Assembly: GCF_056712565.1 (NCBI RefSeq)
Contig: NZ_CM160072.1
DNA length: 64,000 bases
Strand: one strand, 5' to 3'
The notes under the pieces were generated by a model. The model saw only the letters and a list, made by a program, of their open reading frames with translations, had not been told where the DNA came from and did no database searches. Every line of letters begins with the position of its first letter. The first letter of the stretch is position 1. Shown here one piece after another: positions 14,833-64,000 of the stretch. Made by a program: the position numbers and the translations under genes.

Positions 14833-14884
14833 ATAGCCGCCTTGTTGTAATGACAACATTTTGCGGCTATTCTTGAATTGTTGA

Positions 14885-14950
14885 TGGTTCAAGATTAGCC
14901 CCCGTTCTGTTGTCAGGTTTTACCTCTCAACGTGCGGGGGTTTTCTCTTT
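14885..14950 (+). ncRNA. Candidate Rdl antisense RNA of the ldr locus (approximate)
   Basis: Plus-strand hairpin (cccccg...cggggg) followed by T-rich run at about 14895-14950, antisense to the ldr 5' leader; placement inferred from known LDR organisation, coordinates approximate. Confidence 0.3.
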
Positions 14951-19667: not shown

Positions 19668-20318
19668 TCAGAAAATGCGCTCCTGATGCACCCATACCGC
19701 AGCTTCCACGCGAGACTTTAGCTTCATTTTCTTCAGCATGTGCTTGACGTGAACTTTTACTGTGCTTTCGGTGATGTCCAGGCGGCGGGCAATCATCTTG
19801 TTCGGCAAACCCTGGGCAATTAGCTTGAGAATATCGCGCTCGCGTGGGGTTAACTGGTTAACATCGCGCTCAGTAGTGGCACGGTTAGCGCGCAAGCTGG
19901 CGGCCAGAACAGGCGTTAATGCTTCGCTTAATACCATTTCGCCAGCAGCTGCCTGATGTAACGCTTTCAGCAGATCTTCCGGTTCCATATCTTTTAACAG
20001 ATAGCCATCCGCGCCGCGTTTCAGTGCGGTGACCACATCTTCTTCATGGTTAGAGACGCTGAATACCACAATGCGCCCGGAGAGGGACTTTTCGCGCAGT
20101 TTATCCAGCGTTTCCAGACCGTTCATGCCGGGCATATTGAGATCTAACAGGATCAGATCGGGATCAAGAGACTCCGCCAGTTCAATACCCTGTTCGCCAT
20201 TACTCGCTTCGCCAACCACGGTGATATCTGGTGCCATACTGATAAGCTGTTTTACGCCAGTTCGCAACATCGGGTGATCGTCGATCAGCAGGATAGTAGC
20301 CGGTTCCTGATTACTCAT
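19668..20318 (-). CDS. narL: Nitrate/nitrite response regulator NarL
   Basis: ORF 19668..20432; start placed at ATG 20318 ([19 protein letters not shown]...), 216 aa; overlaps narX stop by 8 bp. Confidence 0.95.
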
Positions 20319-22107: not shown

Positions 22108-22372
22108 GTAAACCTCTTCCTTCAGGCTTTAAATGAGCAATAACCTTAATGAATGTGACGATACATTCTGGAATGGCAGTATTCTCGGCTATTGGCTGAA
22201 GTATACCCATACCCGGAAAGAGTTACTCCTTATTTGCCGTGTGGTTAGTCGCTTTACATCGGTAAGGGTAGGGATTTTACAGCACCGTGAAAAATCTCAT
22301 AATTTTTATGAAATCACTGTACTCACTATGGATAATGATAAATATCAATGATAGATAAAGTTATCTTATCGT

Positions 22373-22386
22373 TTGATTTACATCAA
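22373..22386. promoter_or_regulatory. FNR box (TTGAT-TTAC-ATCAA) in the narK promoter region
   Basis: Perfect FNR consensus read in sequence about 60 bp upstream of narK start codon. Confidence 0.8.
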
Positions 22387-22445
22387 ATTGCCTTTAGCTA
22401 CAGACACTAAGGTGGCAGACATCGAAACGAGTATCAGAGGTGTCT

Positions 22446-23837: not shown

Positions 23838-23961
23838 ATCGTAATATTTGATTATCCTTTGCGCGGCATGATGTCGCGCTTTTTTTATGCGTCATTTAGT
23901 TACAACATACTAATGTTGTATGGCTTATTTCGCTGGATTTCATTAAGAGTCATTAATATGT

Positions 23962-23991
23962 TACCCATGGGGAATACTCCTTAATACCCAT
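23962..23991. promoter_or_regulatory. NarL heptamer cluster (TACCCAT / TACTCCT / TACCCAT) about 200 bp upstream of the narG transcription start
   Basis: Three TACYYMT heptamers read in sequence at the expected distance from the FNR site. Confidence 0.7.
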
Positions 23992-24124
23992 CTGCATAAA
24001 AATCTTAATGGTTTAAATAACTACAGGTGTAAAATGTCTTAATTTACAGTCTGTTATGCTATAAATGTTAATTATCCTAAAGGGGTATTCCAGGAATTTA
24101 CTTTATTTTTCATCCCCATCACTC

Positions 24125-24138
24125 TTGATCGTTATCAA
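24125..24138. promoter_or_regulatory. FNR box (TTGAT-CGTT-ATCAA) of the narG promoter
   Basis: Perfect FNR consensus about 90 bp upstream of narG ATG. Confidence 0.85.
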
Positions 24139-24229
24139 TTCCCACGCTGTTTCAGAGCGTTACCTTGCCCTTAAACATTAGCAATGTCGATTTATCAGAG
24201 GGCCGACAGGCTCCCACAGGAGAAAACCG

Positions 24230-27200
24230 ATGAGTAAATTCCTGGACCGGTTTCGCTACTTCAAACAGAAGGGTGAAACCTTTGCCGATGGGCATGGCCA
24301 GCTTCTCAATACCAACCGTGACTGGGAGGATGGATATCGCCAGCGTTGGCAGCATGACAAAATCGTCCGCTCTACCCACGGGGTAAACTGCACCGGCTCC
24401 TGCAGCTGGAAAATCTACGTCAAAAACGGTCTGGTCACCTGGGAAACCCAGCAGACTGACTATCCGCGAACTCGCCCGGACCTGCCAAACCATGAACCTC
24501 GCGGCTGCCCGCGCGGTGCCAGCTACTCCTGGTATCTTTACAGCGCTAACCGCCTGAAATACCCGATGATGCGCAAACGCCTGATGAAAATGTGGCGTGA
24601 AGCGAAGGCGCTGCATAGCGATCCGGTTGAGGCATGGGCTTCTATCATTGAAGACGCCGATAAAGCGAAAAGCTTTAAGCAGGCGCGTGGACGCGGTGGT
24701 TTTGTTCGTTCTTCCTGGCAGGAAGTGAACGAACTGATCGCCGCATCTAACGTTTACACCATCAAAAATTACGGCCCGGACCGTGTCGCTGGCTTCTCGC
24801 CAATTCCGGCAATGTCGATGGTTTCTTACGCATCGGGTGCGCGCTATCTCTCGCTGATTGGCGGTACTTGCTTAAGCTTCTACGACTGGTACTGCGACCT
24901 GCCTCCTGCGTCTCCGCAAACCTGGGGTGAGCAAACTGACGTACCGGAATCTGCTGACTGGTACAACTCCAGCTACATCATCGCCTGGGGTTCAAACGTG
25001 CCGCAGACGCGTACCCCGGATGCTCACTTCTTTACTGAAGTGCGTTACAAAGGGACCAAAACTGTTGCCGTCACACCAGACTACGCTGAAATCGCCAAAC
25101 TGTGCGATCTGTGGCTGGCACCGAAACAGGGCACCGATGCGGCAATGGCGCTGGCAATGGGTCACGTAATGCTGCGTGAATTCCACCTCGACAACCCAAG
25201 CCAGTATTTCACCGACTATGTGCGCCGCTACACCGACATGCCGATGCTGGTGATGCTGGAAGAGCGCGACGGTTACTACGCTGCGGGTCGTATGCTGCGC
25301 GCTGCTGATCTGGTGGATGCACTGGGCCAGGAAAACAATCCGGAATGGAAAACTGTCGCCTTTAATACCAATGGTGAAATGGTTGCGCCGAACGGTTCTA
25401 TTGGCTTCCGCTGGGGCGAGAAGGGCAAATGGAATCTTGAGCAGCGCGACGGCAAAACTGGCGAAGAAACCGAGCTGCAACTGAGCCTGCTGGGTAGCCA
25501 GGATGAGATCGCTGAGGTGGGCTTCCCGTACTTTGGTGGCGATGGCACGGAACACTTCAACAAAGTGGAACTGGAAAACGTGCTGCTGCATAAGCTGCCG
25601 GTGAAACGCCTGCAACTGGCTGATGGCAGCACCGCCCTGGTGACCACCGTTTATGATCTGACGCTGGCAAACTACGGTCTGGAACGTGGCCTGAACGACG
25701 TTAACTGTGCAACCAGCTATGACGATGTGAAAGCTTACACCCCTGCCTGGGCCGAGCAGATTACCGGCGTTTCTCGCAGCCAGATTATTCGCATCGCCCG
25801 TGAATTTGCCGATAACGCTGATAAAACGCACGGTCGTTCGATGATTATCGTCGGCGCTGGGCTGAACCACTGGTATCACCTGGACATGAACTATCGTGGT
25901 CTGATCAACATGCTGATTTTCTGCGGCTGTGTCGGTCAGAGCGGCGGTGGCTGGGCGCACTATGTAGGTCAGGAAAAACTGCGTCCGCAAACCGGCTGGC
26001 AGCCGCTGGCGTTTGCCCTCGACTGGCAGCGTCCGGCGCGTCACATGAACAGTACCTCTTATTTCTATAACCACTCCAGCCAGTGGCGTTATGAAACCGT
26101 GACTGCGGAAGAACTGCTGTCGCCGATGGCGGATAAATCTCGCTATACTGGACACCTGATCGACTTTAACGTCCGTGCAGAACGCATGGGCTGGCTGCCG
26201 TCTGCGCCGCAGTTAGGCACTAACCCGCTGACTATCGCTCGCGAAGCAGAAAAAGCTGGGATGAATCCGGTGGACTATACGGTTAAATCCCTGAAAGAGG
26301 GTTCTATCCGTTTCGCTGCGGAACAGCCGGAAAACGGTAAAAACCACCCGCGTAATCTGTTCATCTGGCGTTCTAACCTGCTCGGTTCTTCCGGTAAAGG
26401 TCATGAGTTTATGCTCAAGTACCTGCTGGGGACGGAGCACGGTATCCAGGGCAAAGACCTGGGGCAGCAGGGCGGCGTGAAGCCGGAAGAAGTGGACTGG
26501 CAGGACAACGGTCTGGAAGGCAAGCTGGATCTGGTGGTGACGCTGGACTTCCGTCTGTCGAGCACCTGTCTCTATTCCGACATCATTTTGCCGACGGCGA
26601 CCTGGTACGAAAAAGACGACATGAATACTTCGGATATGCATCCGTTTATTCACCCGCTGTCTGCGGCGGTCGATCCGGCCTGGGAAGCGAAAAGCGACTG
26701 GGAAATCTACAAAGCCATCGCGAAGAAATTCTCCGAAGTGTGCGTTGGTCATCTGGGTAAAGAAACTGACATCGTCACGCTGCCTATCCAGCACGACTCT
26801 GCCGCTGAACTGGCGCAACCGCTGGATGTGAAAGACTGGAAAAAAGGCGAATGCGACCTGATCCCAGGTAAAACTGCACCGCACATTATGGTCGTAGAGC
26901 GCGATTATCCAGCAACTTACGAACGCTTTACCTCTATCGGCCCGCTGATGGAGAAAATCGGTAACGGCGGTAAAGGGATTGCCTGGAACACCCAGAGCGA
27001 GATGGATCTGCTGCGTAAGCTCAACTACACCAAAGCGGAAGGTCCGGCAAAAGGCCAGCCGATGCTCAATACCGCAATTGATGCGGCAGAGATGATCCTG
27101 ACGCTGGCACCGGAAACCAATGGTCAGGTAGCTGTAAAAGCCTGGGCTGCCCTGAGCGAGTTTACCGGCCGTGACCATACGCATCTGGCGCTGAATAAAG

Positions 27201-27973
27201 AAGACGAGAAGATTCGCTTCCGCGATATTCAGGCACAGCCGCGCAAAATCATCTCCAGCCCGACATGGTCTGGCCTTGAAGATGAACACGTTTCTTACAA
27301 CGCCGGTTACACCAACGTTCACGAGCTGATCCCGTGGCGTACGCTCTCTGGTCGTCAGCAACTGTATCAGGATCACCAGTGGATGCGTGATTTCGGTGAA
27401 AGCCTGCTGGTTTATCGTCCGCCGATCGACACCCGTTCGGTGAAAGAAGTGATGGGGCAGAAATCCAACGGCAACCCGGAAAAAGCGCTCAACTTCCTGA
27501 CGCCGCACCAGAAGTGGGGTATCCACTCCACCTACAGCGACAACCTGCTGATGCTGACTTTAGGTCGCGGTGGTCCGGTGGTCTGGCTGAGTGAAGCCGA
27601 TGCCAAAGAGCTGGGTATCGCCGATAACGACTGGATTGAAGTCTTCAACAGCAACGGTGCACTGACTGCCCGTGCGGTTGTCAGCCAGCGTGTTCCGGCA
27701 GGGATGACCATGATGTACCACGCGCAGGAACGTATCGTTAACCTGCCTGGTTCGGAAATTACCCAACAGCGTGGTGGTATCCATAACTCGGTCACCCGTA
27801 TCACGCCGAAACCGACGCATATGATCGGCGGCTATGCCCATCTGGCATATGGCTTTAACTACTACGGCACCGTAGGTTCTAACCGCGATGAGTTTGTTGT
27901 AGTGCGTAAGATGAAGAACATTGACTGGTTAGATGGCGAAGGCAATGACCAGGTACAGGAGAGCGTAAAATGA
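24230..27973 (+). CDS. narG: Respiratory nitrate reductase A alpha subunit (molybdopterin)
   Basis: 1247-aa ORF, conserved NarG. Confidence 0.97.
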   Translation: MSKFLDRFRYFKQKGETFADGHGQLLNTNRDWEDGYRQRWQHDKIVRSTHGVNCTGSCSWKIYVKNGLVTWETQQTDYPRTRPDLPNHEPRGCPRGASYSWYLYSANRLKYPMMRKRLMKMWREAKALHSDPVEAWASIIEDADKAKSFKQARGRGGFVRSSWQEVNELIAASNVYTIKNYGPDRVAGFSPIPAMSMVSYASGARYLSLIGGTCLSFYDWYCDLPPASPQTWGEQTDVPESADWYNSSYIIAWGSNVPQTRTPDAHFFTEVRYKGTKTVAVTPDYAEIAKLCDLWLAPKQGTDAAMALAMGHVMLREFHLDNPSQYFTDYVRRYTDMPMLVMLEERDGYYAAGRMLRAADLVDALGQENNPEWKTVAFNTNGEMVAPNGSIGFRWGEKGKWNLEQRDGKTGEETELQLSLLGSQDEIAEVGFPYFGGDGTEHFNKVELENVLLHKLPVKRLQLADGSTALVTTVYDLTLANYGLERGLNDVNCATSYDDVKAYTPAWAEQITGVSRSQIIRIAREFADNADKTHGRSMIIVGAGLNHWYHLDMNYRGLINMLIFCGCVGQSGGGWAHYVGQEKLRPQTGWQPLAFALDWQRPARHMNSTSYFYNHSSQWRYETVTAEELLSPMADKSRYTGHLIDFNVRAERMGWLPSAPQLGTNPLTIAREAEKAGMNPVDYTVKSLKEGSIRFAAEQPENGKNHPRNLFIWRSNLLGSSGKGHEFMLKYLLGTEHGIQGKDLGQQGGVKPEEVDWQDNGLEGKLDLVVTLDFRLSSTCLYSDIILPTATWYEKDDMNTSDMHPFIHPLSAAVDPAWEAKSDWEIYKAIAKKFSEVCVGHLGKETDIVTLPIQHDSAAELAQPLDVKDWKKGECDLIPGKTAPHIMVVERDYPATYERFTSIGPLMEKIGNGGKGIAWNTQSEMDLLRKLNYTKAEGPAKGQPMLNTAIDAAEMILTLAPETNGQVAVKAWAALSEFTGRDHTHLALNKEDEKIRFRDIQAQPRKIISSPTWSGLEDEHVSYNAGYTNVHELIPWRTLSGRQQLYQDHQWMRDFGESLLVYRPPIDTRSVKEVMGQKSNGNPEKALNFLTPHQKWGIHSTYSDNLLMLTLGRGGPVVWLSEADAKELGIADNDWIEVFNSNGALTARAVVSQRVPAGMTMMYHAQERIVNLPGSEITQQRGGIHNSVTRITPKPTHMIGGYAHLAYGFNYYGTVGSNRDEFVVVRKMKNIDWLDGEGNDQVQESVK

Positions 27974-29508
27974 AAATTCGTTCACAAGTCGGCATGGTGC
28001 TGAATCTCGATAAGTGCATCGGCTGCCACACCTGTTCAGTGACCTGTAAAAACGTCTGGACCAGCCGTGAAGGCGTGGAATACGCGTGGTTCAACAACGT
28101 GGAAACCAAGCCGGGCCAGGGCTTCCCGACTGACTGGGAAAACCAGGAAAAATACAAAGGCGGCTGGATCCGTAAAATCAACGGCAAACTTCAGCCGCGC
28201 ATGGGTAACCGTGCCATGCTGCTGGGTAAAATCTTCGCTAACCCGCATCTGCCGGGGATCGACGATTATTACGAGCCATTCGATTTTGATTATCAGAACC
28301 TGCATACCGCGCCGGAAGGCAGCAAATCACAGCCGATTGCCCGTCCGCGTTCACTGATTACCGGCGAACGGATGGCGAAAATCGAAAAAGGGCCGAACTG
28401 GGAAGATGACCTGGGCGGTGAGTTTGACAAGCTGGCGAAAGACAAGAACTTCGACAACATCCAGAAGGCGATGTATAGCCAGTTCGAAAACACCTTCATG
28501 ATGTATTTGCCGCGCCTGTGCGAACACTGTCTGAACCCGGCATGTGTGGCGACCTGCCCGAGCGGTGCGATTTACAAGCGTGAAGAAGATGGCATCGTCC
28601 TGATCGACCAGGATAAATGCCGTGGCTGGCGTATGTGCATCACCGGATGCCCGTACAAAAAAATCTACTTCAACTGGAAGAGCGGTAAGTCTGAGAAGTG
28701 CATCTTCTGCTATCCGCGTATTGAAGCCGGCCAGCCGACAATATGTTCAGAAACCTGTGTCGGTCGTATCCGTTATCTTGGCGTGCTGCTGTACGATGCC
28801 GACGCGATTGAACGTGCGGCAAGTACCGAGAACGAGAAAGATCTCTACCAGCGTCAGCTGGATGTGTTCCTCGATCCGAACGATCCGAAAGTCATCGAGC
28901 AGGCGATTAAAGACGGTATTCCGCTGAGCGTTATTGAGGCTGCACAGCAGTCGCCAGTTTATAAAATGGCGATGGAATGGAAACTGGCGCTGCCGCTGCA
29001 TCCGGAATATCGCACACTGCCGATGGTCTGGTACGTGCCGCCTCTGTCGCCGATTCAGTCTGCGGCAGACGCGGGTGAACTGGGCAGCAACGGCATTCTG
29101 CCAGACGTCGAAAGCCTGCGTATTCCGGTACAGTATCTGGCGAATCTGCTGACCGCCGGTGATACCAAACCGGTACTGCGCGCGCTGAAACGTATGCTGG
29201 CGATGCGTCATTACAAACGTGCTGAAACCGTTGACGGTAAAGTCGATACCCGTGCGCTGGAAGAGGTCGGTCTGACCGAAGCCCAGGCACAGGAGATGTA
29301 TCGTTATCTGGCTATTGCCAACTACGAAGATCGCTTTGTGGTGCCGAGCAGTCATCGTGAACTGGCGCGGGAAGCCTTCCCGGAGAAAAATGGCTGCGGC
29401 TTTACCTTTGGTGATGGCTGCCACGGTTCAGATACCAAATTCAATCTGTTCAACAGCCGCCGTATCGATGCCATCGACGTAACCAGCAAAACGGAGCCGC
29501 ACCCATGA
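27970..29508 (+). CDS. narH: Nitrate reductase A beta subunit (Fe-S)
   Basis: 512-aa ORF with multiple CxxCxxC clusters; overlaps narG stop. Confidence 0.97.
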   Translation: MKIRSQVGMVLNLDKCIGCHTCSVTCKNVWTSREGVEYAWFNNVETKPGQGFPTDWENQEKYKGGWIRKINGKLQPRMGNRAMLLGKIFANPHLPGIDDYYEPFDFDYQNLHTAPEGSKSQPIARPRSLITGERMAKIEKGPNWEDDLGGEFDKLAKDKNFDNIQKAMYSQFENTFMMYLPRLCEHCLNPACVATCPSGAIYKREEDGIVLIDQDKCRGWRMCITGCPYKKIYFNWKSGKSEKCIFCYPRIEAGQPTICSETCVGRIRYLGVLLYDADAIERAASTENEKDLYQRQLDVFLDPNDPKVIEQAIKDGIPLSVIEAAQQSPVYKMAMEWKLALPLHPEYRTLPMVWYVPPLSPIQSAADAGELGSNGILPDVESLRIPVQYLANLLTAGDTKPVLRALKRMLAMRHYKRAETVDGKVDTRALEEVGLTEAQAQEMYRYLAIANYEDRFVVPSSHRELAREAFPEKNGCGFTFGDGCHGSDTKFNLFNSRRIDAIDVTSKTEPHP

Positions 29509-30215
29509 TCGAACTCGTGATTGTATCGCGTCTCCTTGAATATCCGGATGCTGCCTTATGGCAGCATCAACAAGAGATGTTTGAGGCGATTGCCGCGTCG
29601 AAAAATCTGCCAAAAGAGGATGCCCATGCGCTGGGCATTTTCCTGCGCGATTTAACGACGATGGATCCGCTCGATGCCCAGGCGCAGTACAGCGAACTGT
29701 TCGACCGTGGCCGCGCCACGTCACTGTTGCTATTTGAACATGTTCACGGTGAATCCCGTGACCGCGGCCAGGCGATGGTGGATCTGCTGGCGCAGTACGA
29801 GCAGCACGGCTTGCAGTTAAACAGCCGCGAATTGCCCGACCATCTGCCGCTGTATCTGGAGTACCTGGCGCAGCTGCCGCAAAGCGAAGCCGTGGAGGGT
29901 TTGAAAGATATTGCGCCGATTCTGGCATTGCTGAGCGCGCGTCTGCAACAGCGTGAAAGCCGTTATGCCGTGCTGTTTGATCTGCTGCTGAAACTGGCGA
30001 ATACCGCAATCGACAGCGACAAAGTGGCGGAAAAAATTGCCGACGAAGCGCGCGACGATACGCCGCAGGCGCTGGATGCAGTCTGGGAAGAAGAGCAGGT
30101 TAAATTCTTTGCTGACAAAGGCTGCGGTGATTCAGCAATCACTGCTCATCAGCGTCGCTTTGCCGGTGCCGTCGCGCCGCAATATCTGAATATCACCACC
30201 GGAGGACAGCACTAA
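29505..30215 (+). CDS. narJ: Nitrate reductase assembly chaperone NarJ
   Basis: 236-aa ORF; overlapping start. Confidence 0.95.
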
Positions 30216-30892
30216 TGCAATTCCTGAATATGTTCTTCTTTGATATCTACCCGTACATAGCCGGGGCGGTCTTCCTGATTGGTAGCTGGCTGCGTTATGA
30301 CTACGGGCAGTACACATGGCGTGCGGCGTCCAGCCAGATGCTGGATCGCAAAGGGATGAACCTCGCGTCGAACCTGTTCCATATCGGTATTCTGGGGATT
30401 TTTGTCGGTCACTTCTTCGGTATGCTGACGCCGCACTGGATGTATGAAGCCTGGCTGCCGATTGAAGTGAAACAGAAAATGGCGATGTTTGCTGGTGGTG
30501 CCAGCGGCGTACTGTGTCTGATTGGTGGCGTGCTGTTGCTGAAGCGTCGTCTGTTCAGCCCACGCGTGCGTGCAACCACTACCGGAGCGGATATCCTGAT
30601 CCTGTCGCTGCTCGTTATCCAGTGCGCGCTGGGCTTGCTGACCATTCCGTTCTCAGCCCAGCATATGGACGGTAGCGAGATGATGAAACTGGTTGGCTGG
30701 GCGCAGTCGGTAGTGACCTTCCACGGTGGTGCTTCTCAACACCTTGATGGTGTGGCGTTTATCTTCCGTCTGCACCTGGTGTTGGGGATGACGTTATTCC
30801 TGCTGTTCCCGTTCTCGCGTCTGGTGCACATCTGGAGCGTCCCGGTGGAGTATCTGACGCGTAAGTATCAGCTGGTGCGCGCTCGTCACTAA
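30215..30892 (+). CDS. narI: Nitrate reductase A gamma subunit (cytochrome b)
   Basis: 225-aa membrane ORF; start overlaps narJ stop. Confidence 0.95.
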
Positions 30893-30920
30893 GCGAATTT
30901 TAGTTCACATAGACCCTGCT

Positions 30921-32245
30921 TCGGCGCTGAGGGATCCCCATAAATCAGCGATAATAAACCAACACCATATTCTGGTAGGTTCTGGTGAGGTGATTAAGAA
31001 TGGTGCTTAGCACCGTTCGTTTTAAAATTAGCGGGGAGTGTCGTAAGACATTCTCCGCTAACGTCAGATACGAGATTACCCGCCGCGTTTTAATGCTGTT
31101 GGCCTGATATCTAAGATGTAACCCTTGATTTTCAGCGTGATAGCCAATAAGCCACAGCACTATTGTGCTCAGTGTTGCCAGCAGGCTCAGTACCAGCATT
31201 CTTCCTGCCGAACAGCTGTAACTGGCTCGCAGACCGAACCCAAAACGCTCACTTTTTTCATCCCTGAAGTTTTGCTCAATCTGCATTCGGCGGCTGTATA
31301 ACTTCATGATTTCTCGCGGTTTAAAGTCATCTGTGCTGCTGAATATTAACCATGGTTCTTTTGCCGCCGACCTGGCATCTTTTATCTGTGATGGTCTGGC
31401 TATACCACAACGCGAACGTTTATTTCTCCGGCCTTTCGGCTCTTTTTTGTGCAAATAAAAATGACCATCGCAACGGGCGTATTCCGCCCGGGAAAGCGTC
31501 CCCGGCCCCAGATATTCAGGTTTGTTACTGGCCTGTAATTCCTGACGCCTGAACCAGCATTCCCCTTTTCTCGCCAGATGCAGTTGTTTATTGCCTCGTA
31601 TCCGGCCAATAAAATCCCAGCCGAGTGATTTTATGTGCCGAAACCAGGCATTCTGGAACCCTGCATCCGTGACGATGATTACCCTTGCTTTTGGGTTTAC
31701 CGCTTCGGAAAGAGTATTAAGAAAGGCTTGCTGTATCTTTGCATTTTGCTGTTTTTCCGAAGGAACTATCCAACTCAGCAATGGAATCGAATGTCCATAG
31801 CAAATCAGGCTGGCGCGGAGTACGTGATACTCCTGAGAGGGGTATCCACTCCAGTCAACGGCGATGACACACAGTGACAGCTTGCTCGTCAGCATGGAAA
31901 TAATGTTTCTGAAAATCAGGGGGATGTCGTGATGAAGAGACTCATTACCGAGCAGACGATCAACACGTTTTATTTTATTTTTGACCTGAGCATTACCGGG
32001 TAAATAACGTCCGATGCTGGTCAGCGTCAGAGATGCGCCATTGATTAGTGCGATAGTGGCATCCAACAAAGCATTTTGTCGGTATTTGTGAAATGGTGCT
32101 AAAGCACCGCGGAAAAAATTCTGACATACTTGGCGAGCAGGCATAGAGGAGATCTCATTGAATTGGTTGCACAAGTCAGTAGATCACAAAACTCTATGCC
32201 TGTCTTTTTTTACCCGCCCATTACTGGGGATTCCTCAGCGCTCCG
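30921..32245 (-). mobile_element. IS186-like insertion sequence (IS4 family), about 1.32 kb; boundaries approximate (+/- 15 bp)
   Basis: Single DDE-transposase ORF flanked by near-perfect 17-bp inverted repeats GCGCTGAGG(G/A)ATCCCCA at 30924-30940 and 32226-32242; size fits IS186 (about 1.34 kb). Confidence 0.65.
30945..32174 (-). CDS. IS4-family (IS186-like) DDE transposase
   Basis: 409-aa ORF; DDE-type features (VIIVTDAGF) and YREK-like signature (YSRRMQIEQNFRDEK); stop codon 5 bp inside the left IR. Confidence 0.75.
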   Translation of the reverse strand: MCNQFNEISSMPARQVCQNFFRGALAPFHKYRQNALLDATIALINGASLTLTSIGRYLPGNAQVKNKIKRVDRLLGNESLHHDIPLIFRNIISMLTSKLSLCVIAVDWSGYPSQEYHVLRASLICYGHSIPLLSWIVPSEKQQNAKIQQAFLNTLSEAVNPKARVIIVTDAGFQNAWFRHIKSLGWDFIGRIRGNKQLHLARKGECWFRRQELQASNKPEYLGPGTLSRAEYARCDGHFYLHKKEPKGRRNKRSRCGIARPSQIKDARSAAKEPWLIFSSTDDFKPREIMKLYSRRMQIEQNFRDEKSERFGFGLRASYSCSAGRMLVLSLLATLSTIVLWLIGYHAENQGLHLRYQANSIKTRRVISYLTLAENVLRHSPLILKRTVLSTILNHLTRTYQNMVLVYYR

Positions 32246-32256
32246 GCGGGTTTTTT

Positions 32257-32574
32257 TTATGGGCACGGTGCGGGGGGAGTTGTCGGATGCGCTTCGCTTA
32301 TCCGACCTACAGGGGAGGATATTTTAGGTCCGGTAAACGCGGTGCCATTGGGCAGAATTAGCTCGGAGTAACAGGTTTTGAGTATTTCAGGAAGAAATGG
32401 TGGTGGGGGAAGGATTACTCAGCGCTGCGCGCTTCGCCCTACGGGTCGTTGCCTGCGGCAACGCTCTCTCGCTGGCCTCGAGTCGAACCTTGGTCGAAGC
32501 TTCTCATCCTTCCCCGCATGGGCAGAATATTTAATTGCGGATTCGTTTGAGAATTCAGGGGCTTTTGTAAGCGA
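32257..32574 (-). repeat. tyrT-distal repeat region (rtT/tpr-like); diverged about 178-bp units each beginning with a tRNA-Tyr 3'-end-like segment
   Basis: tggtggtgggggaaggatt (tRNA 3' end) recurs at 32396-32416 as ggtggtgggggaaggatta; a minus-strand reading frame ends ..[19 protein letters not shown] (arginine-rich, protamine-like tpr-type tail). Confidence 0.5.
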
Positions 32575-32659
<85 letters not shown>

Positions 32660-32692
32660 AGGGGTAATTCATATTGTAGGTAATGCTTGAGA

Positions 32693-32777
<85 letters not shown>

Positions 32778-56459: not shown

Positions 56460-56999
56460 TTAGGATTTATCTTCCTGCGGCATGTGGCGGTAGATATAGA
56501 TACCGCTTAACAATGTGAAGATTAAGGTAAGGGCGGTCAGGCCAAAGACTTTAAAGTTGACCCAAATATTTTGCGGCAGCCAGAATGCGATGTAGATGTT
56601 TGCCAGACCGCAAAGGATAAAGAAAACAGCCCAGGCCAGATTCAGCTTCGACCATACCGATTGCGGCAGGGTGAGTTCTTTACCCAGCATCCGCTGAATT
56701 AGCGGCTTTTTCATCACCCATTGGCTGACTAACAGGGCACCCGCAAACAGGGCATAAATGACAGTAACCTTCCATTTAATAAACTCATCATTGTGGAAGA
56801 ACAGCGTCAAGCCACCGAAGACGACCACCAGAACAAAAGTGATCAGGGCCATCTTCTCAACCTTACGAAAGCGAACCCAGCTATATATAAGCACAATCGC
56901 CGTGGCGACGATGAGCGCCGCAGTAGCCGCATAGATGTCATAAATCTTGTAAAACGCGAAAAAGACAACCAGCGGTAAAAAATCAAGAAACTGCTTCAT
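56460..56999 (-). CDS. yciB: Intracellular septation / inner-membrane protein YciB
   Basis: 179-aa hydrophobic ORF. Confidence 0.9.
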
Positions 57000-57028
57000 T
57001 TTACGATTCCGTAATCAAATGCTTAAGG

Positions 57029-57772
57029 TTATTGGCGAATCAACATATACAGGCGGAACAGATAGATGAGCAATACGGCTGAAATCAGGTTGCTCAAGGT
57101 GTTCGCCAGTACGGCACCAATTTCCGGGGTTAATGCGGCAAAAGAAGAGGCAAAAAGCAGCAACAGTGTTTTTGCCAGCAACCAGCTCAGTACTGCGGGT
57201 GCCACCAGACGCATATTCGCCCATGTCAGCCGCATACTGCTACGCATCGAGGCAAAAACGCCCATTTTGTCCTGTACCAGCATCACCGGTGCCAGAGCCA
57301 GTAAAATGGCCATGATAATTCCCGGAACGACCACCAGCATGATGCCAATCTGTACTAAAAGGGTAGTCAGAAAAATCAGAATAAATAACTTTGGTAATAT
57401 CGGCGCACTGGCACCAATAGCTCGCAGCGCACTGACTCTCTGACCCGCAGACACCAGCTGGATAATTAATATTACGCCCCCGGCGAGAATGGCGTTACCG
57501 ATTAATCCTGAAAAAGTGGACGCCGCTGAAGCCTGCAGCAAAATTTGTTGCTGTTCCGGTGACATATTCTGAACCAGGTCGAACAACCCACTACTGCCGC
57601 TAACGGGTACGCCGTCATTGAGCTGCGCAAGCTGTGCATCACTGGGTGAGAAAACATGCCCTAACACCACTGTGATAAACGCACATAGCAACGATACCAA
57701 CAGAATGGTCATAAATTGATTACGGAAAAAATTTCCGGTGTCACGGTATACGGACTGCGCCGTGATAGACAT
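57029..57772 (-). CDS. yciC: Inner membrane protein YciC (UPF0259)
   Basis: 247-aa hydrophobic ORF. Confidence 0.9.
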
Positions 57773-58127
57773 GCACTCTCCTTGAGTTTTATGCAGGTGT
57801 TAATTAGCGGGCAATTGTACCCTGGTTAAGCCCCGGGTGGCAGCATCAGGTCTTGTATGGAAAAGCATATCTTTGTAAAGCGGAGGTAATTGCTGGCCTT
57901 CAGGCGTGGGCAAACCGCTGAAAGTGGCGAGCGAGTTAATATTTGCGTAGCGAAATATATAAAAATTGATTTAAATCACATTAACCAGGATTTTCAATGC
58001 AACTTCTAAATTAATCCAGATCAATAAAGGGTGAATTACCATATGTAATGTGATCTGTGTAGGATCATTTGTTACCCCAATGTGGGTATATTCGTCACGT
58101 TTTTATAACCATAACGACGGAGCGGAT

Positions 58128-58766
58128 ATGAAAAAGTTAACAGTGGCGGCTTTGGCAGTAGCAACTCTTCTCTCTGGCAGTGCCTTTGCACATGAAGCCG
58201 GCGAATTTTTTATGCGTGCAGGTTCTGCAACCGTACGTCCAACAGAAGGTGCTGGTGGTACGTTAGGAAGTTTGGGTGGATTCAGCGTGACCAATAACAC
58301 TCAACTGGGCCTGACGTTTACTTATATGGCGACCGACAACATTGGTGTGGAATTACTGGCAGCAACGCCGTTCCGCCATAAAATCGGCACCCGGGCGACC
58401 GGCGATATTGCAACCGTTCATCATCTGCCGCCAACACTGATGGCGCAGTGGTATTTTGGTGATGCCAGCAGCAAATTCCGTCCTTACGTTGGTGCAGGTA
58501 TTAACTACACCACCTTCTTTGATAATGGATTTAACGATCATGGCAAAGAGGCGGGGCTTTCCGATCTCAGTCTGAAAGACTCTTGGGGAGCTGCCGGGCA
58601 GGTGGGGGTTGATTATCTGATTAACCGTGACTGGTTGGTTAACATGTCAGTGTGGTACATGGATATCGATACCACGGCTAAGTACAAATCTGGTGTTACT
58701 ACCGTAAAAGACTCGGTACGACTGGATCCGTGGGTGTTTATGTTCTCCGCAGGATATCGTTTTTAA
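58128..58766 (+). CDS. ompW: Outer membrane protein W
   Basis: ORF 58050..58766; start placed at ATG 58128 (MKKLTVAALAVATLLSGSAFA signal), 212 aa, C-terminal ..GYRF. Confidence 0.95.
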   Translation: MKKLTVAALAVATLLSGSAFAHEAGEFFMRAGSATVRPTEGAGGTLGSLGGFSVTNNTQLGLTFTYMATDNIGVELLAATPFRHKIGTRATGDIATVHHLPPTLMAQWYFGDASSKFRPYVGAGINYTTFFDNGFNDHGKEAGLSDLSLKDSWGAAGQVGVDYLINRDWLVNMSVWYMDIDTTAKYKSGVTTVKDSVRLDPWVFMFSAGYRF

Positions 58767-58770
58767 TTTT

Positions 58771-58803
58771 CTCTGCAAAACCTCTGCAAAACCCCTCTGC
58801 AAA
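58771..58803. repeat. Three tandem copies of an 11-bp unit CTCTGCAAAAC (third with a CC insertion) immediately 3' of ompW stop
   Basis: ctctgcaaaac ctctgcaaaac (cc)ctctgcaaaac read directly in sequence. Confidence 0.8.
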
Positions 58804-58804
58804 A

Positions 58805-58829
58805 CTGGTCATCAAATGACCAGTTTTTT
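58805..58829 (+). terminator. ompW Rho-independent terminator (ctggtcat-caa-atgaccag + TTTTTT); the integrase stop codon lies inside this hairpin
   Basis: Perfect 8-bp stem + U-run; integrase stop codon at 58812-58814. Confidence 0.75.
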
Positions 58830-59942
58830 CCATTCCTTACCGCGTGCGTCGTTGTAAATATCGGTCATTTTTTGATTCGAATGGCCCAGCAAAATTTTGG
58901 TATCAACCCCCTGCTCTCTGAACAATCGCTCTGATAAAGATCTCTGCTCATGGAAAGAGGGTGGGGTGCCATTAGCACGCCAGTTGTAATCCACAGAATC
59001 CCGGGCTTTTTTAAATGCAACGGTTAATGTTGCTGGCTTAACCATCCCGCCGCGCTTAGCTGTCCCTTTCGCGTGATGGTGGTGCAATAGCCACGGACTA
59101 AGAACGCAATCGCGGCAGGATGACACCACATCATCTAGGGTGAGATTTAATTTATCGCAACGCAGAGCCAGAGGGATGGCAATCCGGGTTCCTGTTTTTT
59201 GCTGTTCGACATGAAGATAACCATCCCGGATATCCGAAAATTGCATTTTGCAAATATCTGAAAGGCGCTGGCCTGTCATCAGTGCCAGCAGCATACCGCG
59301 CTGTAAAAAGTAACCATCCTTTTCCGCTGCGTTATAAATCATCATCCACTCATCAAAAGTCAGTCGCTGTCTTGATATCCGCACCTGCGGTTTTTTTGCC
59401 GATTCTGCAGGGTTAAAGCCTGGCGGGACATCGCCCGTTTGCTGAGCTTCCCGGAAAACATCGATCAGTACTTTCCTGAAAATTTGTCCCATTCTGTTAT
59501 GTCCTCTGGCCTTGTACTCTTCCAGTACTGATACCACATCTTTTACGGTTATGGCATCTAACGGTCTGGTGCCAAAACGTTCATCAAATACCCTGAGAGG
59601 GGCCGCTTTCTGTTTCAGCGTGTTGAGTTTGATCTCGCCGTTTTCATATCTTTCCTGTTGAATTTTTCTGTAATTATTCAGAAAAATGGTAACGGTTGAT
59701 GAACCGCCGGTGTCACTAATAATTTTCTCCTGCAGACTGAGCATTTGTTCCATTTGCTGCCGGGCAAGACGGCTGTTCGCTTCTGCTGCAATAGTTTCTG
59801 CCAGTTTCTGGTCAATACTGCCGAGACCGTGATTTTTGCCTGTTATGGGATGCCTGTAACGCCAGTAAACTTTGTTATTTCTTTTGTCAAAATACGGAGA
59901 TAATCCCGGAACATCGGTTTTATATTTTCGCGGGCGCGCCAT
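58812..59942 (-). CDS. int: Lambda-family tyrosine integrase
   Basis: 376-aa ORF; strong resemblance to lambda Int including GQRLSDICKMQFSDI..YLHVEQQKTGTRIAIP and PPSFHEQRSLSERL..LLGHS...IYND (catalytic R, H-x-x-R, Y). Confidence 0.92.
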   Translation of the reverse strand: MARPRKYKTDVPGLSPYFDKRNNKVYWRYRHPITGKNHGLGSIDQKLAETIAAEANSRLARQQMEQMLSLQEKIISDTGGSSTVTIFLNNYRKIQQERYENGEIKLNTLKQKAAPLRVFDERFGTRPLDAITVKDVVSVLEEYKARGHNRMGQIFRKVLIDVFREAQQTGDVPPGFNPAESAKKPQVRISRQRLTFDEWMMIYNAAEKDGYFLQRGMLLALMTGQRLSDICKMQFSDIRDGYLHVEQQKTGTRIAIPLALRCDKLNLTLDDVVSSCRDCVLSPWLLHHHHAKGTAKRGGMVKPATLTVAFKKARDSVDYNWRANGTPPSFHEQRSLSERLFREQGVDTKILLGHSNQKMTDIYNDARGKEWKKLVI

Positions 59943-60168
59943 CTTCCAGTATCCTCTTCAAAGCAGGGTGATCTGTGGCGATCACCTCCGGCTTGTTTAC
60001 CATTCCGACAAAGCGAGCTTGCGGATCCACTCGCCAGCGTCTTCCAACTTTTTTGGGGAGAGGAAATATCATTCCGGCTTTAGCGTATTTACTTAACGTA
60101 CTCGGAGTAGGGACCGGTTCACTGAATTCCTCCTTTGCCCACTCAGTGAGCAGAATAAGTCTTGCCAT
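59920..60168 (-). CDS. xis: Excisionase (lambda Xis-like)
   Basis: 82-aa ORF immediately upstream of and overlapping int; LLTEWAKEEF...IFPLPKKVGRRWRV parallels lambda Xis LTLQEWNARQ...IFPPPVKDGREYLF. Confidence 0.75.
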   Translation of the reverse strand: MARLILLTEWAKEEFSEPVPTPSTLSKYAKAGMIFPLPKKVGRRWRVDPQARFVGMVNKPEVIATDHPALKRILEDGAPAKI

Positions 60169-60232
60169 GAGCGTCGTTCGCTAATCATGGTCGCCGCCAC
60201 TATAGCTGGTGGGCAACGACCGGGGTTGAACA

Positions 60233-60775
60233 TTAAAAATCAGCCTGATTTGGGATCAGTTTTTGCCAGATAGCTGAAACGTATTTTGCCTGGTAACGGG
60301 CGTCATCAAGTGCATTATGGCGCTCACCTTCGAATGGAATAGCCGTTCTGGCATCGAAGTCTATGGCTTTCCCCAGCTCAACGATTGTGCGTACATCGCG
60401 ATCGTTGTAGTAACGCCACGGGCAGGGGATCCCCTGCCGTTCGTATGAACGGCGCAAAATCGTGTTGTCGAAGTTGGCTCCATTTCCCCAAACCTGAACA
60501 AAAAATTCACCGGAGTTTTCGTCGATAAATTCCCGCAATTGTAACAGTGCATCATCTAACGGGATTTCATCGGTCATAATGGCAGATTGCGCTTCGCGTG
60601 ATTGCTTAAGCCACCATTTAATGGTGTCCCGATCAATGACTCCGCCAGCAGTTTCCAGATCGATAGTCTTACTAAATTCCGGTCCCATATCTCCGGTTTG
60701 CGGATCGAAAAATATTGCACCTATTGAGATGATCGGGGCATCAGGATTTTTTCCCATGGTTTCAAGGTCGATCAT
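60233..60775 (-). CDS. Phage-encoded DnaQ-like (DEDDh) 3'-5' exonuclease
   Basis: 180-aa ORF with Exo I (MIDLETMG), Exo II (WGNGANFD) and Exo III (HNALDDARYQ) motifs. Confidence 0.7.
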   Translation of the reverse strand: MIDLETMGKNPDAPIISIGAIFFDPQTGDMGPEFSKTIDLETAGGVIDRDTIKWWLKQSREAQSAIMTDEIPLDDALLQLREFIDENSGEFFVQVWGNGANFDNTILRRSYERQGIPCPWRYYNDRDVRTIVELGKAIDFDARTAIPFEGERHNALDDARYQAKYVSAIWQKLIPNQADF

Positions 60776-60808
60776 TAGATGGTCACACGTCCTGCTGGTG
60801 GATGTGAT

Positions 60809-62704
60809 TTAGTGATGACCGTTCACCTTAATTGGGTGATCTGCCGTCTCGCCAGTTTCATTATCGCTATTGTGATGCTGATTGCCGCCAGTGTTCTCCT
60901 TGTGTGGATGTTCAGCGCCTTCCATTTCCTCCGGATCATCTTCCTGAACTTCAACCTGATACTCTTCATCGAATGTTTCTTGGTATGTTGCGTCGCCCAT
61001 CACCGCGCCACAATCAGGACAGTTGCCGCCGCCGGTCTGACCGCAGGCGGTGCAGGCTTTTTCCACTTCCTGGTGCGCCACTGGTTCAGGCTGTTTCGTT
61101 TCTGGCTCGTTTTGTAACGCATTTGGACTGTTTTGTTCCGCTTTTTGGTAGTTCCGTTCCGATTCATGCTGGTTCTGGCTCACAGAATCGCGGGTCTGGA
61201 TCCCCTTAATCCATTTCGGATCATTCGGGTCACTAATCCCTTCAACAAATTCACCACGTGATGCAGCAAGCAACTTATCGGCGTCAGGCTGGCTGATATT
61301 GGCTGCCTGCATAATTTTGTTTACTTCGTCAGCGGTAACTTTTATCGGCTCTGGTTGTTCTGAATCTTCAGCGGTATCTACATTTTGCGGTAAGCCCGTG
61401 TATGTGCCATTTTTTCGGGCAAAATATTCTTCTTTTGTGATTTCAGTGGCGCCAGCAGCCAGTGCCTTATCCAGACCAGAAAGTTTGTTTGCGCGACCGT
61501 ATTTTTCTCCGTCCTTATCTGCGAAGAGGAAATAGAACGGCCCCTCACGCTCTACAGATGGTTCAGCTTCCGGCGCGGTTTCATTTTTTGGGATATCAGA
61601 TACCTCAGTTTCCACTGCATCAGTTTGTGTTTCTGATGACTGGAGAACATCAACAGTGCCCAGGTCTGTTTCTTCATTCTCAAACACGCCCTTTGTCGTC
61701 AGGTATTCGCAGATATATTTGTTCAGTGCTACGGGATCTTTGTGAATGTCGATCGGACGCTCACGGACAAGGCCAAAAATAGTTTGGCGGTCGTAGCGAA
61801 GGGCATCAGGCTGTTTGCGCATTGATGCCGAGATACGCTTCCAGTCTTCGCGGTCGTTGTCGATAACTTCTTTTTTTGCCCAGCGATGGATGCTGCCGTC
61901 AATGTTTCCGGCATCCACATCACCAGGCCAGAGAGCGTAGGCCAGTTCGTCATCCAGTGTTTTCCATGTCTGCTTGTATTCGCGATGAATGGCAGCAATG
62001 ACCGGGCTGATTTTTCCTGTTGAATTTTCAGTGTACTGTTGATTGGCTCTGGCGCGGGCGAGATCAACAACAGACGTGTATTTTCCGGTTTCCTTGCGTT
62101 CACCTTCGCGACGTTTTTTCCAGATGCGCATCTCTGCCTGAATTTCGGGCCATTTAGCACCAGGAATACATTTATGCTTAACCCACCCAATGGCGTGCAA
62201 CTTAAGATCCGGATACATGGCGTTAACTTCTGGCATTTTCATCAACGCTTCAACGATATGTCCGTCGAATGTTGCCATGTCTTCCTGCAACAATTCCTGT
62301 GCGCTAATAACCATATCAACGGTGATGTTTTCACATGTGTCGAACTTAACCATGACAGCGTTCTGTACTTCAGGGGCCAGCTTGTCAAAAGTGACGTTCA
62401 TCGGATCGGATTCAGTCTCGACCGGAACAAAGGAAGCAGACGCCTCATCCCAGCGGTTTTCCTGCATATATTCAGCATCCCAGGAATCGAGGGCTGGGCG
62501 GGGTATACCGGGTTTATCCTCGCAAACAAGAAATTTATAAGCGCAGTCCTGAGCAGCCGGATAATGTTCCAGGAATTGCCAGTGAAATTTTGCGCGGGCG
62601 CGACGTTCATCACCGGCTTCAATGGCAGTGGCTACAGCGACGGCACCTTCTTCCTTTATTGCCTGTTCGTCCGGAATGGCGGCGCAAATAAAGACTTTAC
62701 TCAT
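60809..62704 (-). CDS. Large acidic hypothetical protein (631 aa) of prophage early region; C-terminal Cys4 zinc-ribbon-like motif (CTACGQ...CPDCG) and His-rich tail
   Basis: Long uninterrupted ORF co-oriented with int/xis/exo; GAGGT Shine-Dalgarno 8 nt upstream of ATG at 62704; no family recognised by eye. Confidence 0.7.
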   Translation of the reverse strand: MSKVFICAAIPDEQAIKEEGAVAVATAIEAGDERRARAKFHWQFLEHYPAAQDCAYKFLVCEDKPGIPRPALDSWDAEYMQENRWDEASASFVPVETESDPMNVTFDKLAPEVQNAVMVKFDTCENITVDMVISAQELLQEDMATFDGHIVEALMKMPEVNAMYPDLKLHAIGWVKHKCIPGAKWPEIQAEMRIWKKRREGERKETGKYTSVVDLARARANQQYTENSTGKISPVIAAIHREYKQTWKTLDDELAYALWPGDVDAGNIDGSIHRWAKKEVIDNDREDWKRISASMRKQPDALRYDRQTIFGLVRERPIDIHKDPVALNKYICEYLTTKGVFENEETDLGTVDVLQSSETQTDAVETEVSDIPKNETAPEAEPSVEREGPFYFLFADKDGEKYGRANKLSGLDKALAAGATEITKEEYFARKNGTYTGLPQNVDTAEDSEQPEPIKVTADEVNKIMQAANISQPDADKLLAASRGEFVEGISDPNDPKWIKGIQTRDSVSQNQHESERNYQKAEQNSPNALQNEPETKQPEPVAHQEVEKACTACGQTGGGNCPDCGAVMGDATYQETFDEEYQVEVQEDDPEEMEGAEHPHKENTGGNQHHNSDNETGETADHPIKVNGHH

Positions 62705-62796
62705 TTTGTTTTACCTCATTACAGATTTAAGGGTGAACAAATCCCTGCCATTGCTGGCATATAAGAATGAAATCGGATGTTTATTACGGAACTGTT

Positions 62797-62988
62797 TTAA
62801 AGACCTGCCGGGATTTCGTTATTATCCTGGTGAATAACTTTATCGACCGGGTAACAGTTACCGGGAATTTTCTGTTCGGTTGCTGCAGTCACACACTCCT
62901 GCATTGTCCTGTGAACACTGACTGCAGTATCAACTGGCTCTCCGGAAACAAGAAAAACTGTCAGAACAAGTGCAAATGCTGTATTCAT
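62797..62988 (-). CDS. Small secreted/membrane protein (63 aa, signal-peptide-like N-terminus MNTAFALVLTVFLVSG, two Cys)
   Basis: ORF 62797..63042; start placed at ATG 62988 with AGGA Shine-Dalgarno 9 nt upstream. Confidence 0.45.
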   Translation of the reverse strand: MNTAFALVLTVFLVSGEPVDTAVSVHRTMQECVTAATEQKIPGNCYPVDKVIHQDNNEIPAGL

Positions 62989-63738
62989 TGCCAGCATCCT
63001 TTTTGTATCGGACGTAAACGGGCCAACATTGAAAGAATGCATATTTTATTTAATAGCTCCCGTTCGTGTTTTCTCTTGTTAATGGCATCTTCAGTAAATA
63101 CAGGGTTACTGATAGTGACACCAATTTCAAAACAACCTTCAGACGTATTAACGTTTGGTAATAACGTTTCCATTATCGCGTCCTCAACAATGAATTTTGT
63201 GATGCGGTGCCTGGTGCTTCCAGGTGACGTTAACCAGTTAACAATTAACGCCGGATACAGAGAATCCACCCATAACACTGTTTTTGGTTTTAACTGTTCC
63301 GCGTGCGCTTAGCCGCATTCACCGCATCACAAAATTCACTTTAAAAAGGGCGGCAGAGCAGTCACGGAGTAAAACTGATACCGCCAAACGTCACCAGAAA
63401 ATTGATAACAGAGGGCGTTGCAGCGGGGTTGTCACTTAAGCGTATGGTCAACCTGACAACCCGGTGTCCTCAACGGTGGAAGGAATAACCCCGCCATACT
63501 TACCGCCGCGCCATTTCGCGGATTGCCACAACCGGAAGCGCACGGTCGACGAAAATTTAACGACAGGCTATCTATGAACCAGCTACCTCGCCGTGCGCTT
63601 TCGCGTTATGGTCTGACTTTTCAGGGAAATATCCTTTCAGTAAACTGTCAGTGCCGGATGCTCACCCGTGTCCGGCGCACGCACTCCACCTCACCCGTGG
63701 AGAACTCCTTAATTACCAACCTTAGCTTCGTTGGTTAG

Positions 63739-63960
63739 CTATTCACGCGGGTATGTAATCATTCTGGCAATGCTTAATGCCGCTGCTTTTTCCAGATTGG
63801 TGATATCCTGCTCCAGAGCGGACAGATTTTCAGCCTGCTTAGCCCTGGCTTCATTGGCCCATTTCAAATCCTGCGCTGCATTAATTTTCTGGCGCATCCA
63901 CTCATAAAGTTCATCATTGGTATAGTCTGGCGCGATGATGACGGGTTCTCGTTTCTGCAT
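63739..63960 (-). CDS. Hypothetical phage protein (73 aa, predicted helical, ..LSALEQDITNLEKAAA..)
   Basis: ORF with GAGGAA Shine-Dalgarno 7 nt upstream of ATG; co-oriented with prophage early genes. Confidence 0.5.
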   Translation of the reverse strand: MQKREPVIIAPDYTNDELYEWMRQKINAAQDLKWANEARAKQAENLSALEQDITNLEKAAALSIARMITYPRE

Positions 63961-64000
63961 ACTGATTCCTCGCGGTGCTGCTTCGCTTATCAGCCGTTAG

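Follow-up and report, generated by a model that had tools for sequence, protein, structure and literature searches.

In the 64,000-nt stretch of DNA analysed here, hereafter the window, two short open reading frames (ORFs) on the minus strand, at 62797-62988 and 63739-63960, are separated by 750 bp that a sequence-only reading had described as ORF-poor, with clustered short palindromes, and more like an operator/promoter or small-RNA region than like coding sequence. The question that this locus raises is what the gap contains and how it is used. As we argue in the following, the segment almost certainly belongs to the early-left operon of a lambdoid prophage lying beside ompW, of which it makes up the distal half; this is the dicBF operon of Escherichia coli. 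No feature of the sequence contradicts this explanation, and the ydfC–dicF–dicB–ydfD segment is an ordinary, well studied locus that was already known; it is a textbook dicBF locus, for which no new explanation is needed. What can be added concerns the 190-nt DicF species: its 5' body now seems to be a conserved domain with a pseudoknot, one that is shared with the leader of P1 ban and has no entry in Rfam.

Alignment with the Qin prophage of E. coli K-12 gave 98% identity over 1,186 alignment columns (minus strand, 62780-63965), the sole indel being a single nucleotide in the non-coding spacer, and the K-12 annotation lists ydfC, the ncRNA dicF, dicB and ydfD with the order and spacing found here. 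The identity and the position of every part are demonstrated in the present sequence. By megablast, the segment 62700-63760 was matched in 4,751 of 5,426 complete E. coli genomes, with ydfC, dicB, ydfD and an exonuclease annotated beneath the matches, and its 1,061 queried bases are 100% identical in UTI89, S88, APEC O1, ATCC 11775 and others (20 complete genomes among the matches listed). In UTI89, S88 and ATCC 11775, the prophage that carries the match is adjacent to ompW. The neighbourhood in ATCC 11775 includes a Cro/CI-type regulator, a LexA-family repressor, ydfA, ydfB, ydfC, dicB, ydfD, the exonuclease, an excisionase, an integrase and ompW, a gene content that identifies the region as the early-left arm of a prophage of the lambdoid type. 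All genes across 60-64 kb of the window lie on the minus strand, while ydfA, ydfB and the promoter fall past the window end and were seen in a near-identical record, with 3 differences from the window in the 7.3 kb compared. According to the ATCC 11775 record, the repressor of this prophage is a LexA-family protein, as opposed to DicA in K-12, and the induction conditions may therefore differ from those of K-12.

Both flanking ORFs exist as reported. The upstream one is ydfC (63739-63960, minus strand; 73 aa), the last gene ahead of a long untranslated stretch, with ~98% nucleotide identity to K-12 ydfC (b1573). Records with full identity across the queried stretch name it 'protein YdfC', and neither Pfam nor NCBIfam has a family above cut-off for it. 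The downstream one is ydfD (62797-62988, minus strand; 63 aa), whose DUF1482 product matches Pfam PF07358 over profile positions 1-57 of 57 (84.9 bits, cut-off 25; E=3.6e-24). This second ORF had been taken to encode a small secreted protein; the ORF itself stands, and its product is to be identified as the lysis protein YdfD, given the annotation of K-12 b1576 as 'lysis protein' and PMC8835842, where YdfD is presented as a lysis protein of 63 aa that inhibits the IspG step.

The gap between these two genes had been thought to hold no convincing ORF on the gene strand, a view that has to be abandoned. Inside it lies dicB (62985-63173, minus strand; 62 aa), encoding a cell-division inhibitor, which is recognised at full length by Pfam PF05358 (127.4 bits, cut-off 27; E=1.7e-37; 62 of 62 positions) and NCBIfam NF049927 (132.7 bits, cut-off 100), and is so annotated in the matched records. 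Its start codon is an internal ATG within a 97-aa GTG ORF, with GAGGA 8 nt 5' of it and a small predicted hairpin (63177-63160) covering it, and the gene shares a 4-nt overlap with the start of ydfD. With respect to K-12, DicB carries a few substitutions (K2E, Q36H, V47L and C-terminal residues). Conserved coding sequence, named beforehand by the sequence-only reading as a finding that would speak against it, is thus present for about one quarter of the gap, and the non-coding part is limited to 63174-63738, that is, 565 nt.

DicF, its probable processing stems and the dicB leader

DicF is among the earliest bacterial sRNAs described, and its 190-nt species has been known from gels since 1990. 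The suggestion of a small-RNA region proved correct: the ~565 nt are non-coding, processed RNA with DicF at 63348-63400 (minus strand). The present copy, 53 nt long and identical to K-12 dicF (b1574), consists of a single-stranded 5' seed and an intrinsic terminator. It matches Rfam RF00039 with 76.7 bits (gathering score 48; E=2.3e-16; model positions 1-52 of 52), the match spanning 63348-63399 on the minus strand and the 53-nt K-12 dicF mapping to 63348-63400, and it was recovered too by a scan of the whole window at Rfam gathering scores. Fold prediction places the terminator stem at 63385-63349, followed by UUUUU at 63347-63343 (minus strand); it escaped a simple terminator scan, whose 8-nt loop limit is probably too short for it. 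An ORF-based reading has its limits, as a gap that seemed 'empty' in fact contained a toxic gene of 62 aa and an sRNA of 53 nt.

Two long duplexes bracket this sRNA. On its 5' side, an imperfect duplex of ~22 bp with a variable apical loop (63526-63611, minus strand; arms 63611-63586 and 63551-63526) gave a fold z of -3.75, with 0 of 200 shuffles equally stable. Relatives keep the arms and replace the loop, and one of them (L029) shows a compensatory GCGUAC/GUACGC change. On the 3' side, the dicB leader (63174-63347, minus strand), which is STnc100-like, has a fold z of -5.85, again with 0 of 200 shuffles equally stable, and is predicted to form a 21-bp long-range outer stem (63340-20/63209-189) around three hairpins; among the predicted elements are a GTTAAC hairpin (arms 63252-43/63235-26), with the middle GTTAAC in its loop, and a CCUGG/CCAGG hairpin (63224-10). 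This structure is kept in 20 relatives with a double change in one pair only, homologues that are too similar to prove it by covariation. Over its full length the leader aligns with STnc100 (Rfam RF02076; alignment at 63141-63350, minus strand; E=7.8e-6). It is structurally related to STnc100, but its 37.7 bits fall short of the gathering score (47), so that by the curated rule of Rfam it is no member. The GTTAAC hairpin corresponds to a hairpin in the STnc100 covariance model.

Transcription of the K-12 operon comes from dicBp, a PL-like promoter that a CI-like repressor keeps silent; there, DicF is excised from the polycistronic RNA, and RNase E generates the 5' end of the 53-nt form (10.1101/2023.04.14.536235; PMC5069750; PMC9438474). 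The 5' end of the 190-nt species is due to RNase III, a dependence that has been shown (10.1101/2023.04.14.536235), whereas the 3' end of DicF arises either by intrinsic termination or by RNase III acting on read-through RNA, which yields a 72-nt form (PMC9438474; PMC5069750). We placed these ends by position, counting the published lengths along the present sequence. Counted back from the DicF 3' end at 63348, 190 nt lead to ~63537-8, within the 3' arm of the ~22-bp duplex, and the 3' end of 72-nt DicF, placed by its length, comes to ~63329, within the 5' arm of the long stem (21 bp) in the leader. To judge by position, both long duplexes would sit where RNase III sites are expected.

Given its 98-100% identity to K-12, the present copy probably shares the processing, the targets and the protein functions established there by experiment. 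A single transcript would start at the repressor-controlled PL-like promoter past the window end and follow the order ydfA-ydfB-ydfC-dicF-dicB-ydfD, running on into the exonuclease, xis and int, with the RNA downstream of ydfC serving as a long untranslated region. The majority of transcripts would end at the intrinsic terminator that forms the DicF 3' end, the ~22-bp stem would be cut by RNase III to give the 190-nt species, and this species would be trimmed by RNase E to 53-nt DicF. Together with Hfq, DicF would then pair with the mRNAs of ftsZ, manX, xylR and pykA, which it is known to repress (10.1101/2023.04.14.536235; PMC5069750; PMC9438474), blocking division and altering metabolism. 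Read-through transcripts, in turn, would enter the structured leader, where RNase III cleavage of the 21-bp stem would give the 72-nt DicF 3' end. The same RNA would encode YdfD, for lysis, and DicB, for MinC-dependent inhibition of FtsZ and protection from ManYZ-using phages, since DicB is reported to act with MinC against FtsZ and to block ManYZ-dependent phages (10.1101/2023.04.14.536235; PMC5069750; PMC9438474).

Palindromes, repeats and short reading frames

The palindromes on which the operator/promoter reading was built do occur in clusters: exact search confirmed two copies of GTTAAC (63229, 63237) near another TTAAC (63245), and two of AACGTT (63150, 63163). Read as binding sites for a repressor or for RNA polymerase, they would provide internal control between ydfC and ydfD, and an earlier study, cited in Ragunathan et al. 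(10.1101/2023.04.14.536235), once proposed a second promoter upstream of dicB. We nevertheless consider this most improbable. The GTTAAC units belong to a single RNA hairpin of the highly stable leader, where they supply both arms as well as the loop, and the AACGTT units are codons, the pair corresponding to dicB codons 2-8 (ATG GAA ACG TTA TTA CCA AAC GTT, M-E-T-L-L-P-N-V). A promoter scan of 62600-64000 returned no sigma-70-like site on the gene strand, its two matches being both on the plus strand and equal to the shuffle expectation, and in K-12 neither primer extension, Northern nor RT-PCR detected a promoter internal to the operon (Ragunathan et al., 10.1101/2023.04.14.536235). Operators for the repressor should rather be sought ~1 kb away, at the PL-like promoter that precedes ydfA; the repressor gene and the promoter that it targets are situated ~1 kb upstream of ydfC. 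The palindromes can thus be dropped as operator candidates. As a statistical signal, the hexamers were rejected as well: GTTAAC and AACGTT have 22 copies each in the window, versus ~15.8 expected from base composition, so that neither is notably enriched, and a second GTTAAC pair with the same 8-nt spacing occurs at 19849/19857 in unrelated sequence.

The non-coding stretch could also be hiding further small proteins, a reading that we find improbable and that concerns two ORFs. The longer, with 54 aa on the plus strand (63574-63738), is annotated by PGAP as WP_001331716.1 in ATCC 11775 and in two others among the genomes listed, and is a 'hypothetical protein' in some RefSeq records. It is, however, unannotated in K-12 and matches no Pfam or NCBIfam family, the RNA elements to which it runs antisense are conserved in their own right, and the variants listed in relatives all carry amino-acid replacements, with in-frame stops in two relatives. 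The shorter, a minus-strand mini-ORF of 10 codons (GUG at 63694 to UGA at 63662), follows a strong AAGGAG at 63710-63705, with the GUG 10 nt on, but in several relatives, for example, of the L012 type, the start reads GUC and is thus not conserved. A protein reading of the spacer was rejected on the grounds of the missing family match and of the stops and replacements found in relatives.

The direct repeat noted in the same part of the spacer is genuine: the 64-kb window contains two copies of CTCACCCGTG and no more, one at 63661 and the other at 63690. For a 10-mer repeated within 50 nt, we estimate ~0.04 expected occurrences per 942 nt, so the repeat is probably not due to chance. The copies had been described as flanking a hairpin; instead, each of them (RNA CACGGGUGAG) has a hairpin to itself, whose loop contains it or overlaps with it, the two hairpins being adjacent (63702-97/63689-84 and 63676-71/63658-53) and belonging, together with a stem at 63739-33/63721-15, to three small hairpins 3' of the ydfC stop (63653-63739, minus strand). 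The 100-nt segment containing the repeat folds no better than its shuffles (z -0.76), and the hairpin loops drift among relatives (GGGUCAG, GGAUAAG). One contig, L046, is without the sequence between the two copies, a gap that reads as a deletion via recombination between the repeats. The mini-ORF mentioned above begins in one CTCACCCGTG copy and ends in the other.

Module B, directly 5' of DicF

Between the RNase III stem and DicF lies the 5' body of the 190-nt species, which we refer to as module B (63417-63532, minus strand). These ~115 nt are predicted to form a four-helix, cloverleaf-like RNA domain with a pseudoknot, namely, the closing helix P0 (63532-25/63424-17), the hairpins P1 (63521-06), P2 (63493-74) and P3 (63462-54/63434-26), and a pseudoknot that joins the P1-P2 linker to the P3 loop (63499-94 with 63447-42). 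Homologues were fished by two pattern scans of viral contigs, with at least 120 loci each. In the resulting alignment of 61 distinct homologues, 95% of the cells are paired, and changes on both sides were found in 11 of 33 pairs, versus 4.9 ± 1.3 in shuffles that ignore relatedness, none of the 500 reaching 11; slid controls were all lower than the true pairing. One pseudoknot position that the fishing pattern had left free covaries with its partner (UA in 57, CG in 3 and UG in 1), and RNAalifold, which is unable to draw pseudoknots, independently picks the pseudoknot helix. The loops behave differently from each other. That of P3 (AGGUUGACCAURCGC) is near-invariant, even among the homologues fished with this loop unconstrained, whereas that of P2 is variable in sequence and, in the variants inspected, pyrimidine-rich with UCCU/CUCC, which resembles an anti-Shine-Dalgarno sequence.

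The same segment is found elsewhere. By blastn against phage genomes, spacer positions 207-330 (window ~63409-63532) recur at 77-90% identity in phages without DicF, which shows the spacer to be modular. These include Ayreon, where module B lies in the PL operon, Stx2c phages, Salmonella phage F1055, and P1 and its relatives; in P1 it is found ~50 nt downstream of the C1-controlled Pban promoters, overlapping an annotated 'dicF-like region'. No Rfam DicF match at E<=0.1 was obtained for the P1 and Ayreon loci. In every variant class examined, an intrinsic terminator follows within ~10-40 nt 3' of module B, and the linker between both varies, being the DicF seed here, other sequences elsewhere, and almost nothing in Ayreon. 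Taken at the level of sequence, module B and its terminator appear to travel together in repressor-controlled early operons of lambdoid phages and P1, with the linker swapped between phages.

Does module B have a function of its own? We consider it nearly an even bet, with the balance slightly against, that it acts as an RNA domain in its own right, in which structured RNA and terminator make up one mobile unit, serving either to build sRNAs or to control the terminator that comes next. Covariation in four helices and in the pseudoknot, loops that remain near-invariant where the fishing pattern left them unconstrained, recurrence without DicF in the P1 ban leader, the Ayreon PL operon and other phages, and the constant company of a terminator across a variable linker all argue for it, and such a function would be compatible with, and add to, the dicBF explanation. 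However, module B could be simply the stabilising or processing body of the 190-nt precursor, and the covariation has to be read with the sampling in mind: both fishing patterns lie inside module B, and all homologues come from enterobacterial phages, to which the sequence diversity is confined, so that many of the seemingly independent changes may be inherited. The similarity, at least, was evidently already known, as the P1 annotation 'dicF-like region' implies. Faubladier and Bouche (1994; J Bacteriol 176:1150; PMC205167) probably record it too. Among the papers covered by our literature search, which did not include that article, none describes the structure of module B. At E<=10, no Rfam 15 family matches module B, DicF and a chance snoRNA match being the only ones in 63340-63745. 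We propose, tentatively and with somewhat more doubt than belief, that module B may be an undescribed, independently mobile structured RNA.

Several known types of RNA were considered for module B. ARAGORN found no tRNA or tmRNA gene in 62700-64000, and no Rfam tRNA match was seen at E<=10. The Rfam model for phage antisense RNA of the C4 / P4-CI type gave no match at E<=10 in 63340-63745. With an antiterminator RNA of the put type (putL/putR of HK022) in mind, module B was compared with HK022 (20000-32000; blastn, word size 7), in whose record the put sites are unannotated; only chance matches of 11-14 nt were returned. An antiterminator pairing between the GGCGG of module B and the 3' arm of the terminator would amount to ~5 bp in the DicF type and is impossible in P1.

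If module B is functional, it is tempting to speculate on two roles. One would be that of a scaffold, with phages building different sRNAs from it; the other would be that of a cis element, which determines how much transcription continues beyond the terminator and reaches early genes such as dicB and ban. Once worked out, the role of module B could explain how phages balance sRNA output against read-through into toxic early genes.

Relation to known systems

The closest known system is the dicBF operon of the Qin prophage of K-12, with which the present locus shares the gene order, an identical DicF, the terminator, the positions of the RNase III stems, and intact dicB and ydfD. The present copy differs in residing in another prophage, next to ompW, and in retaining xis, int and a large exonuclease gene downstream, whereas in Qin the downstream ydfE is a pseudogene, followed by an IS2 insertion. 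As an sRNA cut from the 3' end of an mRNA at an intrinsic terminator, through termination and RNase E, DicF resembles CpxQ, SroC and SdhX (PMC9438474). Unlike these, DicF also uses RNase III at two long duplexes, and is followed by downstream genes that are reached via read-through.

The leader of dicB finds its counterpart in the prophage-encoded sRNAs STnc100 and its relative PasD. It aligns to the whole 206-position STnc100 model and has in common with it the outer stem, the GGUGAAU motif, a GUUAAC-type hairpin and the CACCnGGAnGCACCnGGCACC hairpin, and, like STnc100, it recurs as a cassette at several positions in phages of the lambdoid and P1 types. STnc100 is a free-standing sRNA, however, whereas here the element is the 5' leader of an mRNA, that of dicB, and of other ORFs in relatives. 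For module B, the comparison is with the ban-operon leader of P1 (AF234173, 68472-68573), in which a copy of module B with 77% identity and compensatory changes precedes an intrinsic terminator, and which also lies just downstream of a repressor-controlled early promoter. The P1 leader differs in having no DicF, another linker and no upstream RNase III stem, and in leading into tRNA genes and ban, where the present operon leads into dicB.

Small ORFs and repeats between ydfC and dicF

Two candidate small ORFs were considered in the ydfC-dicF spacer. The longer, a 54-aa ORF antisense to the spacer (63574-63738, plus strand), carries the RefSeq annotation 'hypothetical protein' in some genomes (WP_001331716.1). 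With replacements along its whole length and stops in two relatives, it varies in a way that suggests it is not a gene. The shorter, a 10-codon ORF on the minus strand, has a GUG start 10 nt after a strong Shine-Dalgarno-like AAGGAG (63662-63710 for the two together), and it begins in the first copy of the direct repeat CACGGGUGAG and ends at a UGA stop in the second. Since several relatives have GUC at the start position, this ORF is probably fortuitous.

The same repeats lie in or overlap the loops of two small hairpins. In an IMG/VR relative (L046), the region homologous to 63660-63700 lacks about 29 nt between the two copies of CACGGGUGAG, a natural variant which reads as a deletion caused by recombination between direct repeats. 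This variant also suggests that the two-hairpin arrangement is dispensable. Upstream of the hairpin region, many relatives (L007, L012, L026, L030 and others) carry an opposite-strand gene in place of ydfC, whose ribosome-binding site and ATG adjoin the hairpins (…CATTTCACCCTCCTGAGGG…). Therefore, in these phages the DicF unit may depend on a different upstream transcript or on a promoter of its own.

Other features of the window

The 823-aa 'exonuclease' gene of the same prophage (60233-62704, minus strand) is interrupted by a premature stop at 60809-60811. This change, E632* (GAA to TAA), is one base off ATCC 11775, from which the window differs at only three positions across 56700-64000, and it splits the gene into two ORFs, an N-terminal one of 631 aa and another of 180 aa that contains the Rv2179c-like 3'-5' exonuclease domain. 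Further Rfam matches comprise an RtT RNA beside two tRNA matches (32398-32777, minus strand), possibly the tyrT locus, and rdlD (14881-14946, plus strand), the antitoxin RNA in an ldr/rdl toxin-antitoxin pair. These are host features with no relation to the dicBF locus. A second GTTAAC-N2-GTTAAC pair occurs in unrelated sequence at 19849-19862 on the plus strand (GTTAACTGGTTAAC), and the leader hairpin has this 14-nt string on its minus strand.

Module B and the STnc100-like leader in other phages

Immediately 5' of DicF lies module B (63417-63532, minus strand), a cloverleaf-like RNA with a pseudoknot, a fold backed by covariation and without counterpart in Rfam 15. Homologues were found in phage P1 (L003, 1501-1595), phage Ayreon (L004, 1501-1623) and many IMG/VR loci among L006-L245. 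In all variant classes examined, module B is followed by a variable linker and an intrinsic terminator, and the P2 loops inspected are pyrimidine-rich, with UCCU or CUCC. In the P1 ban leader and in other phages, module B occurs without DicF.

The STnc100-like dicB leader (63174-63347, minus strand) is a mobile cassette. It recurs in other phage contigs (loci L012, L032, L036, L074 and L104), where ORFs unrelated to dicB lie downstream of the same leader. Another STnc100-like element, sub-threshold at 33.4 bits, precedes tciA in phage P1 (L003, 2842-2961).
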